A DNA stretch of 64,000 bases from Escherichia coli (GCF_003334335.1 NZ_QOWQ01000018.1); one strand, 5' to 3'. Positions 5,658 to 39,300 are shown, numbered from the stretch's first letter. The notes: generated by a model from the sequence alone, not told the origin. Made by a program: numbers and translations.

Positions 5658-6442
5658 AAAAATTCATTATACTGCTCAGTTTACTGATACTCCTGCCTCT
5701 GACAGCAGCCAGCAAGCCATTAATTCCAATAATGAAGACACTTTTTACGGACGTTACCGGTACTGTACCAGATGCTGAAGAGATCGCGCATAAAGCCGAG
5801 CTTTTTCGCCAACAAACGGGAATTGCACCGTTTATTGTGGTTTTACCCGACATTAATAATGAAGCCAGTCTCAGACAAAATGGTAAAGCGATGCTGGCGC
5901 ATGCGTCATCTTCATTGAGTGATGTAAAAGGAAGTGTTCTGTTACTATTTACTACCCGCGAACCACGGTTAATTATGATCACCAACGGCCAGGTTGAAAG
6001 TGGTCTGGACGATAAACATCTCGGCCTTCTGATAGAAAATCACACGCTGGCTTATTTAAATGCAGATCTCTGGTATCAGGGAATCAATAATGCATTGGCT
6101 GTTCTACAAGCACAGATATTAAAACAATCGACGCCGCCACTAACGTATTATCCGCATCCAGGACAACAGCATGAAAATGCTCCCCCCGGCAGCACCAACA
6201 CATTAGGTTTTATCGCCTGGGCTGCGACGTTTATCTTATTTTCCAGGATCTTTTACTACACGACTCGTTTTATTTATGCGTTAAAATTTGCAGTGGCGAT
6301 GACTATTGCCAATATGGGTTATCAGGCTTTATGTTTGTATATCGATAATAGCTTTGCGATTACCAGAATATCGCCACTCTGGGCAGGGCTAATTGGTGTC
6401 TGTACGTTTATTGCCGCATTGTTATTGACGAGTAAACGATAA
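5654..6442 (+). CDS. ycfZ: Inner membrane protein YcfZ
   Basis: 262-aa ORF with signal/TM segments; 4-nt overlap with ymfA; synteny. Confidence 0.85.
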
Positions 6443-17509: not shown

Positions 17510-17550
17510 AGCCCGGATAAAAAAATCCCCGCGACACGGCATGTCGCGGG
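17508..17550 (-). terminator. Rho-independent terminator for bhsA (minus strand)
   Basis: CCCCGCGACACGGCATGTCGCGGGG hairpin; on the minus strand it is followed by a T-tract (plus strand ATAAAAAAAT). Confidence 0.7.
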
Positions 17551-17590
17551 GAAAAAATCAGCAGTAGCAGGCATTAATGAGGGTTAATGC

Positions 17591-19531: not shown

Positions 19532-20836
19532 TTAATGCAACTTCAAACGCGGACGGATAACGCGGTTAATACTCCCCACCAGCATCATTAATCCGGTTTT
19601 AAAGTAACCATGCAGCGCAATCTGATGCATTCGGTATAGCGAGATATATACAAAGCGCGCAATTCGTCCTTCAATCATCATTGAGCCGCGCGTCAGGTTA
19701 CCCATCAGGCTACCGACGGTGGAGAAGTTCGACAGCGATACCAGCGAACCATGATCTTTATACTGATAATTTTTCAGCGGCTTACCGTTCATCTGCGCCA
19801 GAATGTTGTTCATTGCGCAAGTCGCCATCTGGTGTGCAGCCTGAGCACGCGGCGGAACAAAGCCCCCTTCCGGACGCGGGCATGACGCGCAGTCGCCAAT
19901 AGCGTAAATGTCTGGATCGCGGGTGGTTTGCAGCGTCGGTTCCACCACCAGCTGGTTGATACGGTTAGTTTCAAGACCACCGATATCTTTCAGGAAGTCT
20001 GGCGCTTTGATCCCGGCTGCCCATACCATCAGATCAGCCTCAATATATTCGCCATCTTTAGTGTGCAGGCCGCCTTCATCAGCACTGGTGACCATGGTTT
20101 GCGTCAGCACGCGAACGCCAAGTTTCGTTAGCTCGTTGTGGGCCGCAGCAGAGATACGTGGCGGTAACGCAGGCAAAATACGTTCTCCCGCTTCTACCAG
20201 CGTTACGTTCAGGGCTTCGTTGGTCAGGCCTTTGTAACCGTAGCTGTGCAGTTGCTTGACCGCGTTGTGCAATTCAGCGGAGAGTTCTACACCCGTCGCG
20301 CCGCCGCCGACAATCGCAATGTTCACTTTGCCATTCGCGCCCAGGTTGGCGGAGTATTTCAGGAACAAATTCAGCATCTCCTGGTGGAAGCGACGCGCCT
20401 GGTGCGGGTTATCGAGGAAAATGCAGTTCTCTTTGACACCTGGCGTATTGAAATCGTTAGAGGTGCTACCCAGCGCCATTACCAGGGTGTCATAGGCGAT
20501 TTTACGTTCCGGAACCAGCAGTTCACCTTTCTCGTCGCGCAGTTCTGCAATAGTGATTGTTTTCGCTTCACGATCAATATCAATGACGGAACCCAGCTGG
20601 AACTGGAAACCATGATTGCGCGCATGGGCCAGATAGCTCAACGCATCGACGCCTTCATCAAGCGAGCCAGTCGCCACTTCGTGCAGCAGCGGTTTCCACA
20701 GGTGGCTGTGGTTACGATCGACCAGCGTAATTTTGGCTTTTTTCTTGCGTCCCAGCTTATGCCCCAGCTGTGTTGCCATTTCCAGCCCACCAGCACCGCC
20801 GCCGACAATCACAATCTTTTTCAATGGCGTAGTCAA
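19532..20836 (-). CDS. ndh: NADH dehydrogenase II (type II NADH:quinone oxidoreductase)
   Basis: Two GxGxxG FAD/NAD motifs ([20 protein letters not shown]); 434 aa. Confidence 0.95.
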
Positions 20837-20863
20837 CGTGACCCCCTTAAATTTATTAACCAA

Positions 20864-20903
20864 TTGTTAATTAATGGTTATTAACATAGCTCTTAATTAA
20901 CAA
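20864..20903. promoter_or_regulatory. 11-bp perfect inverted repeat (TTGTTAATTAA / TTAATTAACAA) upstream of ndh
   Basis: Read from sequence; arms at 20864-20874 and 20893-20903. Confidence 0.35.
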
Positions 20904-21108
20904 CAGGTTACAGCAATGAAAATGTTCTTCGCTATTGAGAATAACATGAATGGTGCATTGGTCATACCAAAATTGATGTTAATCAAGTTTTGTTGCTGAA
21001 AAGATAGGCGACTTTACCGGGTGAGATCAAAAAACAGAGTTTATTGTTTATTATTTGAGCGAATTTGTGAGAGTGATATAGAGTGAGGGGTGTATGCAGG
21101 GCGTTCGG

Positions 21109-21234
21109 TAGGCCTGATAAGAAGCGCATCAGGCATTGATGCTCGACTGTCGGATGCGGCGTGGACGCCTTATCCGACCCACAGAATTCGGAGCGCATCA
21201 GGTACCGGCAAGGTTACCTGATGCGACGAGGGCA
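21109..21234. repeat. REP/BIME cluster (about three REP units)
   Basis: GGCCTGATAAGAAGCGCATCAGGC, GTCGGATGCGGCGTGGACGCCTTATCCGAC, CATCAGGTACC...GGTTACCTGATG. Confidence 0.8.
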
Positions 21235-21235
21235 T

Positions 21236-21778
21236 TTACCCGAGGGTTTTGAACGCTTTAATGCGCTGTAAATGCGGGGAGATATTCTTGAATTTGTGCG
21301 TCTGCTCTTCGTCCCAGACAATCTCGTAATAATGATGCAACTCTTCAGATGTCCGCTGGCTGTTAAGCGCTTCATCATTACGCGACAAAATCACCAGGCA
21401 ACGATCGCGATTCTTCTCACGGAAGTTGGTCACACACTTAGTGGCAATATCGGCATACTCTTCCGGGCGATCAATCTTGCCTTCCATGTTCTCATAAGGG
21501 AACAAATTAGGGTTGAAGATCACCTGGCGGATGTCGCAAAGAAAACCAATCCGTTCCGCCCAGTATCCGCCCAAGCCAACGCCGCAAATTAGCGGACGCT
21601 CGTCAACGTTCAGTTGCAACATTTTGTCCACTTCTTTAAGCAGATGCTGCATATCATGTTTCGGATGCCGCGTACTGTAGCTTATCAAGCGTACATCCGG
21701 GTCAATAAACTGCAATTGTAAGACTTTCTCGTGGTTACCCGGACTGTTAGAGTCAAAACCGTGTAAATAGATAATCAT
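21236..21778 (-). CDS. ycfP: UPF0227 esterase-like protein YcfP
   Basis: Start set at [10 protein letters not shown] (180 aa); alpha/beta-hydrolase-like. Confidence 0.85.
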
Positions 21779-38229: not shown

Positions 38230-39300
38230 CTACCGCAGAGTTCCGCTTTTGCCACCGTCCAGCAGCTCAAAACCAGCTGGGTATACAGATTCCAGGCGAG
38301 CGGCAATTCGCTGAGGAACTTGTCGCTGCACCGCCTGCACTGCCTGTTCAATCGCGACCGCAAAAGCTCGCTGATTGGCTGCACCATGACTTTTTATCAC
38401 CGTGCCGCGCAATCCTAACAGACAGGCGCCGTTATACTGGTCGGGGTTGAGGTGACTGAATCGCCTCGTCAGGCTCTTTTGTAGCCAACGCTTTAATAAC
38501 AGTAGCCACCACGACCGTTTTTTCCCTTCACCCTGAGATTTCAGCAGAGAAAGGAACATCCTGACAACACCTTCCATCGTCTTTAATGTGACATTTCCTG
38601 TAAAGCCGTCACAAACCAGCACATCTGTCTTGCCAGTTAACAACTCATTGGCTTCAAGATAGCCGATATAATTGATAGAAGGGATTGTTTTAAGCACCGC
38701 TGAGGCATCCCGAATACTGTCGAGACCCTTTACTTCTTCTTCACCAATATTGAGCAACGCCACGCGAGGATTGGGAATTTCCACCACCTCTTCAGCCAGA
38801 ACTGAGCCCATAATGGCAAATTGCACCAGCATTGTGCTGTCACAATCGACGTTGGCCCCTAAGTCAAGGACCACCGTTTTGCCCTTTTGCTGATGTGGTA
38901 ATACCGTCACCAGCGCCGGACGCTCAATCCCCTCCAGGGGCTTGAGTAATAATTTTGCCAGCCCCATCAGCGCCCCGGTATTACCGGCACTGACACAGGC
39001 TTGCGCTCGACCTTCTTTCACCAGCTCCAGGGCCACGCGCATTGAACTCCCACGACTGGCGCGGATAGCTTGCGAAGGCCGGGCATCACTGGCGATAACT
39101 GACTGCGCAGGAATAATCTGCAGACGCGAACGTTGTTCAAAGTCAGCTTTAGCAAGTAATGGCGTGATGGCGTCGGGATTGCCGACTAAAAGAAGAGTGA
39201 GTTGCGAATTAGAATTCAGTGCCTGCAATGCTGCAGGCACTGTCACGGAAGGGCCAAAATCCCCTCCCATGACATCTAACGCCAGGGTTAGACGTGTCAA
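38230..39300 (-). CDS. plsX: Phosphate acyltransferase PlsX
   Basis: 356-aa ORF; recognised; synteny. Confidence 0.93.

Follow-up and report, generated by a model that had tools for sequence, protein, structure and literature searches.

The inverted repeat ahead of ndh in this Escherichia coli sequence is very probably an operator for ArcA-P in the initial transcribed region of the gene, each 11-nt arm being the highest-information direct-repeat element of the ArcA box, TTGTTAATTA. The element is part of an ArcA-P binding region that has already been published, and no new regulator is called for; only slightly new are the explicit layout of two boxes in inverted orientation and the conservation of that layout across Enterobacteriaceae and Erwiniaceae. 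Judged by matrix scores and alignments, we show here that both arms match oppositely oriented ArcA repeat elements, at +27..+44 and +46..+77 of the transcript, and that these are conserved. The gene product, Ndh-II, serves the aerobic chain as its uncoupled NADH dehydrogenase, and the ndh promoter is a textbook example of control by many factors (FNR, ArcA, PdhR, Fis, IHF and NsrR). The most conspicuous sequence feature near ndh would belong to ArcA and not to FNR, Fis or IHF, and it would act downstream of the transcription start.

The Repeat and Its Place in the ndh Transcript

The window, that is, the whole stretch of 64,000 nucleotides analysed (GCF_003334335.1, NZ_QOWQ01000018.1), carries ndh on its minus strand (CDS 19532..20836), and higher window coordinates lie on the 5' side of the gene; ndh and ycfP are the RefSeq genes annotated here. 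The 601 bases around the repeat match E. coli K-12 MG1655 at 100% and were found in 5426 of the 5426 complete E. coli genomes. The RefSeq CDS boundaries and the sequence place the TTG start codon at 20834..20836 (minus strand), with a Shine-Dalgarno sequence, AAGGGGG, just before it. A genome-wide in vitro run-off study puts Pndh at U00096.3 1,165,992, with the promoter TTGGTA-21-TATTCT (PMC10301672). Mapped via NC_000913.3, in which the ndh CDS starts at 1,166,085, this gives a transcription start (+1, A on the sense strand) at 20929 on the minus strand, a -10 element TATTCT at 20938-20943 on the same strand, and a leader of 93 nt. The placement agrees with an independent anchor, since the perfect FNR box is then centred at -50.5, where Myers et al. 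2013 (Table 1) list the ndh FNR site. A simple sigma-70 scan of 20700-21300 returned no promoter, and the scan is uninformative because the real ndh promoter has a poor -35 element and an unusual spacer. As to the start codon, TTG stands behind a strong AAGGGGG Shine-Dalgarno in most genera (20834-20836; loci L026-L045 of the comparison set described below), while the same position holds ATG in most Kluyvera loci and GTG in K. georgiana, Pseudocitrobacter, Yokenella and Raoultella.

One arm, TTGTTAATTAA, lies at 20864-20874; after 18 nt of spacer its reverse complement, TTAATTAACAA, follows at 20893-20903. The earlier note, which had described a perfect 11-bp inverted repeat with this spacer in AT-rich DNA, is borne out in each respect: its coordinates are exact, and the local sequence is 66-75% A+T. 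Its placing of the element immediately upstream of ndh is right for the start codon, as the near arm ends 28 nt before TTG, and wrong for the promoter, as the arms lie downstream of the transcription start, at +27..+37 and +56..+66 within the leader. The symmetry reaches further than the arms, in an extended imperfect palindrome at 20857..20910 whose 25-nt arms (20857-20881 and 20886-20910) are 80% complementary around a variable centre of 4 nt. Because TTAATTAA is self-complementary, the two copies are as much a direct as an inverted repeat, and aligned as direct repeats (TGTTAATTAA and TCTTAATTAA) they agree at 90%.

Probable ArcA-P Binding at the Repeat

TGTTAATTAA is the recognition element of ArcA. 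By the published definition an ArcA box spans 18 bp and contains two direct repeats at 11-bp spacing, to which further repeats are often added (Park et al. 2013, PMC3798270). From 114 boxes in Table S3 of that study, with ndh left out, we derived an 18-bp weight matrix; the training boxes themselves score 9.5 to 21.8 bits. On the plus strand, 20864-20881 scored 18.8 bits with this matrix, higher than any other of the window's roughly 128,000 positions, and outside ndh the next site reached 12.8. The same 18 bp are the published ndh box, ttgttaattaatggttat (minus strand, 1165277, 18.7 bits; Park et al. 2013 Table S3, PMC3798270), which consists of one repeat arm and the next 7 nt. The published ArcA-P site around it, TTATTAACCAATTGTTAATTAATGGTTATTAA, contains three direct repeats and occupies 20853..20884 on the plus strand (+46..+77; U00096.2 1165260-1165291; Park et al. 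2013 Tables S3, S4 and S7), with Ri values of 3.6, 12.5 and 8.0 bits (Table S4); the 12.5-bit repeat, DR2, is the start-codon-side arm itself. Our own mapping of the transcription start places the site at exactly the +46/+77 given in Table S7 of that study (PMC3798270).

Thus the arm nearer the start codon (20864..20874, +56..+66, plus strand) coincides with the strongest ArcA direct-repeat element, TTGTTAATTA(A), antisense to ndh, and it shows 98% column identity among 81 Enterobacteriaceae. The arm nearer the promoter (20893..20903, +27..+37, minus strand) matches the same element, TTGTTAATTA(A), on the ndh sense strand, again with 98% column identity, and forms DR1 of a second, predicted ArcA box of opposite orientation, TTGTTAATTAAGAGCTAT, at 20886..20903 (+27..+44, minus strand). 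This second box scores 11.5 bits, the sixth best value in the window and inside the training range; the sense-strand box is weaker in K-12 because its second repeat has decayed. Both the 18.8- and the 11.5-bit box combine a GTTA core, repeats 11 bp apart from centre to centre and a score within the range defined by ChIP. Further matches to the matrix were seen nearby. Two of about 10 bits flank the core promoter, one at 20905-20922 (plus strand; +8..+25) and one, of 10.3 bits, at 20976-20993 (-64..-47), which overlaps FNR box I and is the '-57' site predicted by Rolfe et al. 2012. Elsewhere in the window, matches of 11.5-12.8 bits lie at 35351-35368, 6419-6436, 61463-61480 and 6267-6284.

Binding data from the literature point to the same place. 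Anaerobic occupancy of the ndh locus by ArcA in vivo has been reported, with ChIP-seq positions at 1165227 and 1165239 and enrichments of 11.9 and 11 (Park et al. 2013, Table S1, PMC3798270). These positions correspond to 20917 and 20905 of the window, 2-14 bp beyond the promoter-proximal arm on the side of the transcription start; they are closer to that arm than to the listed site, which fits occupancy of both boxes, though the difference is within the resolution of the method. In vitro, ArcA~P (0.8-5 uM) represses ndh transcription and a dephosphorylated ArcA control does not (Rolfe et al. 2012 Fig. 5c, PMC3411108). The same authors predicted ArcA sites at -57, +36, +52, +57, +66 and +68 (Rolfe et al. 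2012, PMC3411108), of which '+36' is the promoter-proximal arm and the other downstream sites cover the distal arm and its neighbours. In the literature searched, we found no ArcA-P footprint on ndh or on the two arms. The suggestion of a candidate operator in the earlier note stands, for the element lies inside a published transcription-factor binding region (ArcA, Park et al. 2013), and the mapped sites do not leave it outside every protected region.

Studies disagree on what ArcA does to ndh in vivo, and the effect depends on conditions: Park et al. 2013 (PMC3798270) saw no ArcA-dependent change under their conditions, and both activation and repression are cited there. An inconsistent net effect is unsurprising, given that six regulators overlap at the ndh promoter.

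We propose the following course of events. The antisense copy of TTGTTAATTA would serve as the middle repeat of the three-repeat site at +46..+77, and the sense copy as the first repeat of the box at +27..+44. In microaerobic or anaerobic growth, when the quinone pool is reduced, ArcB phosphorylates ArcA. ArcA-P would then occupy the leader repeats from about +16 to +77, probably as a complex of several dimers, and lower ndh transcription by blocking RNA polymerase just after initiation. We infer that the sense-strand box, recognised here by its matrix score, is occupied by ArcA-P as well and that the block falls on promoter escape or early elongation. The two boxes would read as a palindrome because they converge and have the self-complementary core TTAATTAA in common. 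The palindrome to which the earlier note drew attention is thus real as a symmetry, and the symmetry is probably not the feature recognised, as ArcA-P reads direct repeats 11 bp apart; it would be a by-product of converging boxes.

Conservation of the Leader in Related Species

The comparison set comprised the closest 80 ndh loci listed from other Enterobacteriaceae species, together with four loci added through protein look-ups (hits listed at >=84% identity), namely Erwinia persicina, Pantoea, Shimwellia blattae and [Pantoea] beijingensis; Yersinia, Serratia and Vibrio lie outside the set. Segment identities refer to the majority residue, with 81 distinct upstream regions aligned. Within the leader, conservation is much higher between +20 and the start codon than over +1..+19 (20857-20929; loci L003-L086). 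Identity is 0.62 over +1..+19, 0.98 in the arm at +27..+37, 0.64 in the central 4 nt (+45..+48) and again 0.98 in the arm at +56..+66; TTAACAATTGGTTAAT, at +58..+73, is invariant in 81 of the 81 regions. Upstream of the transcription start, the PdhR-type box at -35 reaches 0.99, the -10 element 0.95 and FNR box I 0.91, as against 0.45 in the distal FNR II region and 0.49 in the Fis I region. The conserved leader element is clearly functional. The ArcA box is among the best-conserved cis elements of the ndh locus in Enterobacteriaceae and Erwiniaceae, and the distal FNR and Fis sites are not. That the distal FNR (-94.5; 21017-21030) and Fis I (-124) regions are 45-49% conserved, compared with 99% for the PdhR-type box, suggests that these inputs are confined to Escherichia and its close relatives.

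What is kept in the leader fits the reading of the arms as ArcA repeats. For the antisense box, the median score in 85 orthologous leaders (Enterobacteriaceae, Erwiniaceae and Shimwellia) is 19.4 bits and the minimum 12.2, so that the box is conserved in orthologous promoters, and it still scores 16.4-19.3 bits in those Erwiniaceae whose arms no longer pair. The sense box in the same 85 leaders ranges from 7.2 bits (in two Erwiniaceae) to 21.6, with a median of 12.8, and the best sense-strand boxes, of 17-22 bits, occur for example in Salmonella diarizonae, Enterobacter and Superficieibacter. On the antisense strand, the ATAAC conserved at +49..+53 corresponds to the GTTAT core of the following repeat; it stands at the canonical spacing of 11 bp, which is kept even where the distance from arm to arm differs between species. 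The TTAATTAA cores, measured from start to start, are 26 bp apart in Enterobacteriaceae, 24 in Erwinia and [Pantoea] beijingensis, and 23 in Pantoea; the fixed half-site spacing across species that goes with a symmetric-dimer operator is not seen. Within the arms only one position varies (+34/+59), and it falls on position 8 of either box, where the ArcA motif carries least information (0.26 bit).

The change of A to G at +59, which converts TAATTAACAATTGGTTAA (9.3 bits) into TAGTTAACAATTGGTTAA, yields a match of 17.1 bits as a sense-strand ArcA box in loci L025 and L040 and occurs also in L004, L027, L042-L044, L046, L048, L060, L072 and L076. With a 17.1-bit sense box arising in this way, the number and orientation of predicted leader ArcA boxes vary between genera.

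The ArcA matrix does not predict everything that is conserved here. Box positions 7 and 9-11, the outer AACC/GGTT and TTAACAATTGGTTAAT are conserved above what the ArcA information content would predict, and the Spearman correlation between ArcA information content and conservation is 0.29 to 0.48. Conservation beyond the ArcA information implies that other constraints overlap the boxes, be it IHF, Fis, repeats on the opposite strand or the mRNA. Overlapping other-strand repeats account for part of the excess, TGGTTAATAA, for example, being a good sense-strand repeat, and the rest could come from IHF, Fis, constraints of translation initiation or a modest role at the RNA level. This small residue of unexplained leader conservation is a modest lead for a function of the ndh leader.

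Transcript Hairpin and Other Readings of the Arms

A different function has to be weighed for the same nucleotides, in which the ndh leader mRNA forms a long hairpin rich in A and U (+20..+73) and thereby modulates mRNA stability, for instance as a target of a double-strand-specific RNase, or translation from the TTG codon, besides or instead of binding of the DNA by protein. The MFE fold (-23.9 kcal/mol for 114 nt, z = -2.46 against shuffles) has this hairpin, as does the centroid fold, and RNAalifold returns 22 consensus pairs at -15.6 kcal/mol, with 90.7% of cells paired as compared with 24-55% when the partners are slid. The variable centre coincides exactly with a 4-nt apical loop, the common non-Watson-Crick pairs are G.U on the sense strand, the pair A43-U50 becomes G-C in Shimwellia, Kosakonia oryziphila (L079) has a perfect 17-bp stem, and the leader conservation above the requirement of the ArcA information content would also suit such a role. 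However, the leader fold alone carries little weight, since any DNA palindrome gives a hairpin in its transcript, and the G.U pattern is weak evidence, because transitions opposite G or U keep the pairing automatically.

The covariation tests speak against the hairpin. The covariation score is 0.065 against 0.067 in shuffled alignments, 387 of 500 shuffles reaching it, and no compensatory base pairs beyond the shuffled and slid controls were found in the 81 aligned leaders. Double-sided changes occur in one pair only (5 cells, matched by 4 of 500 shuffles). That pair, +34/+59 (T to C with A to G), is broken in 13 of the 81 leaders (C.A, U.C and A.A), and the apparent covariation there amounts to two free positions, as position 8 carries little information in both ArcA boxes. 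Erwinia, Pantoea and [Pantoea] beijingensis lose 2-4 pairs (+25..+28/+65..+68) without compensation, and in these Erwiniaceae the MFE is only about -10 kcal/mol while the ArcA box holds 16-19 bits. Furthermore, the Shine-Dalgarno lies outside the stem, Rfam has no matching family (only sub-threshold hits over 20828-20916, 17-18 bits against gathering scores of 79-97), and our literature search, which turned up chloroplast papers only, found no paper on mRNA-level control of E. coli ndh. Taken together, we regard a regulatory hairpin in the leader as unlikely. Similarly unlikely, in our estimate, is a bifunctional element, which would be either a two-box ArcA-P operator in the DNA combined with a selected transcript hairpin tuning the stability or translation of ndh mRNA, or a pair of head-to-head boxes nucleating a complex of ArcA-P, IHF and Fis. 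Two reading frames in the same DNA were set aside: an upstream ORF of six codons in the K-12 palindrome (20868-20888, minus strand; +43..+63; ATG TTA ATA ACC ATT AAT TAA, MLITIN*), whose ATG is absent in most genera and which is therefore probably fortuitous, and a TTG-extended ORF starting at 20863, an artefact of ORF listing.

The architectural proteins have a weaker claim to the arms. An IHF-like sequence, TAACAACAGGTTA, at 20898..20910 on the plus strand (+20..+32, antisense to ndh, centre +26.0), has one mismatch to WATCAANNNNTTR and overlaps the promoter-proximal arm, and a mirror-image copy, TAACAATTGGTTA, again with one mismatch to WATCAANNNNTTR, lies on the sense strand at +61..+73 (centred at +67). 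Scanning with the 15-bp Fis consensus (G...C with an A/T core) gave matches centred at -124, -73 and +58, the last with two mismatches. IHF reportedly leaves footprints at ndh at +26, -17 and -58, and Fis is said to bind at -123, -72 and +51, with repression from Fis III (+51). Our IHF-like match at +26 agrees well with the first of these footprints, and the Fis-like matches at -124, -73 and +58 with the three Fis sites. The authors of the IPOD-HR study, too, assign the occupancy at ndh partly to IHF. Going by these matches, IHF and Fis probably overlap the repeat element, and they may compete with ArcA-P for it.

It would be another matter if the arms were primarily IHF and Fis sites, with one IHF-type site in each arm and Fis site III between them, bending the DNA downstream of the promoter so as to repress ndh. 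This we consider very unlikely. The two consensuses are degenerate, the matches here carry mismatches and were scored without a null, and the exact sequence TTGTTAATTAA, like the fact that it is nearly invariant, is explained by neither. Conservation is only 0.45-0.49 in the Fis I and FNR II regions against 0.98 in the arms, and the ArcA matrix gives the window's top score to one arm. The IHF and Fis matches are compatible with an overlap and are not an alternative to ArcA.

The remaining candidates lie elsewhere or do not fit. The perfect FNR box TTGATgttaATCAA, a consensus match (20973..20986, centre -50.5), and a second FNR box at about -94.5 are away from the arms, on which the FNR consensus fits only with 2-3 mismatches. 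A PdhR-type box, ATTGGTcatACCAAa, at 20957..20971 (-42..-28), with 1 mismatch and 99% conserved, overlaps the -35 region and not the leader; PdhR repression of ndh is cited in the literature. Fur was considered for the arms, by eye or consensus, and set aside. The earlier note had suggested a comparison with FNR, Fis and IHF footprints at ndh. Its mention of FNR does not fit, for the FNR boxes are elsewhere and ArcA, which it did not name, explains the sequence of the arms; its mention of Fis and IHF retains some value, in that matches resembling their sites overlap the element.

A chance palindrome in AT-rich intergenic DNA, or a cruciform former without any sequence-specific reader, could point to the 66-75% A+T content and to the self-complementary TTAATTAA, which inflates the apparent symmetry, but a chance origin is refuted and the whole notion scarcely credible. 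When the local sequence was shuffled 5000 times with its dinucleotides preserved, such a repeat appeared in only 0.18-0.24% of cases, and the window has two copies of the 11-mer, one on each strand, where 0.05 would be expected. Over some 80 species, conservation is 98% in the arms and 62% in the flanking +1..+19, and of 5426 complete E. coli genomes 5417 carry the element at >=95% identity.

Relation to Known Systems

With ArcA-P as the probable reader of the arms, the closest parallels are found among ArcA-P sites of several direct repeats. At icdA, three repeats lie over the transcription start (Park et al. 2013, PMC3798270), and as at ndh two TGTTA-type repeats, spaced by 11 bp, make up an 18-bp box that a third repeat flanks. 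The boxes score 18.8 bits at icdA and 18.7 at ndh, and both are near or after the transcription start and associated with repression. Unlike the icdA type, the ndh site is wholly downstream of the transcription start (+46/+77), the opposite second box abuts it to give a 54-bp quasi-palindrome, and the effect of an arcA deletion in vivo is small or inconsistent. The dctA site (Park et al. 2013), with a strong and a weak box on opposite strands, has the inverted two-box layout that we propose for ndh. At dctA, however, the boxes are 24 bp apart without repeats and have been footprinted, whereas at ndh they abut with a 4-nt gap and the layout is known from sequence.

Palindromic operators of symmetric dimers, such as the FNR box TTGAT-N4-ATCAA at -50.5 of ndh, resemble the repeat in their inverted symmetry, conserved arms and variable centre. 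The ndh arms, in contrast, are 29 bp apart from centre to centre, the spacing shifts in Erwiniaceae, and the arm sequence fits a response regulator that reads direct repeats and not a known symmetric-dimer motif. Structured hairpins of enterobacterial 5' leaders likewise share with ndh a long hairpin predicted in the 5' UTR and a variable apical loop, but ndh differs from them in that covariation support and an Rfam family are absent, the Shine-Dalgarno is free, and the pairing decays where the protein site persists.

Repeats Elsewhere in the Window

Five perfect inverted repeats with arms of 11 nt or more, spaced by 3-30 nt, lie in the 64-kb window (6 overlapping 11-mer seeds, against 0.56 seeds expected). 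One of them, CGCATCAGGTA/TACCTGATGCG at 21194-21204/21215-21225, has 11-nt arms and lies in a stretch of REP/BIME-type palindromic units between ycfP and the ndh promoter (21104-21230), where naRNA4 matches of Rfam appear on both strands at 21111-21179 with sub-threshold scores of 56.5 and 52.5 bits (gathering score 59.5). Three more perfect repeats of this kind, with short spacers, were found at 17526-17552 (TCCCCGCGACA/TGTCGCGGGGA), 39217-39242 (CAGTGCCTGCA/TGCAGGCACTG) and 62819-62865 (TGACTCCTCCAT/ATGGAGGAGTCA); they are G+C-rich and probably terminators.
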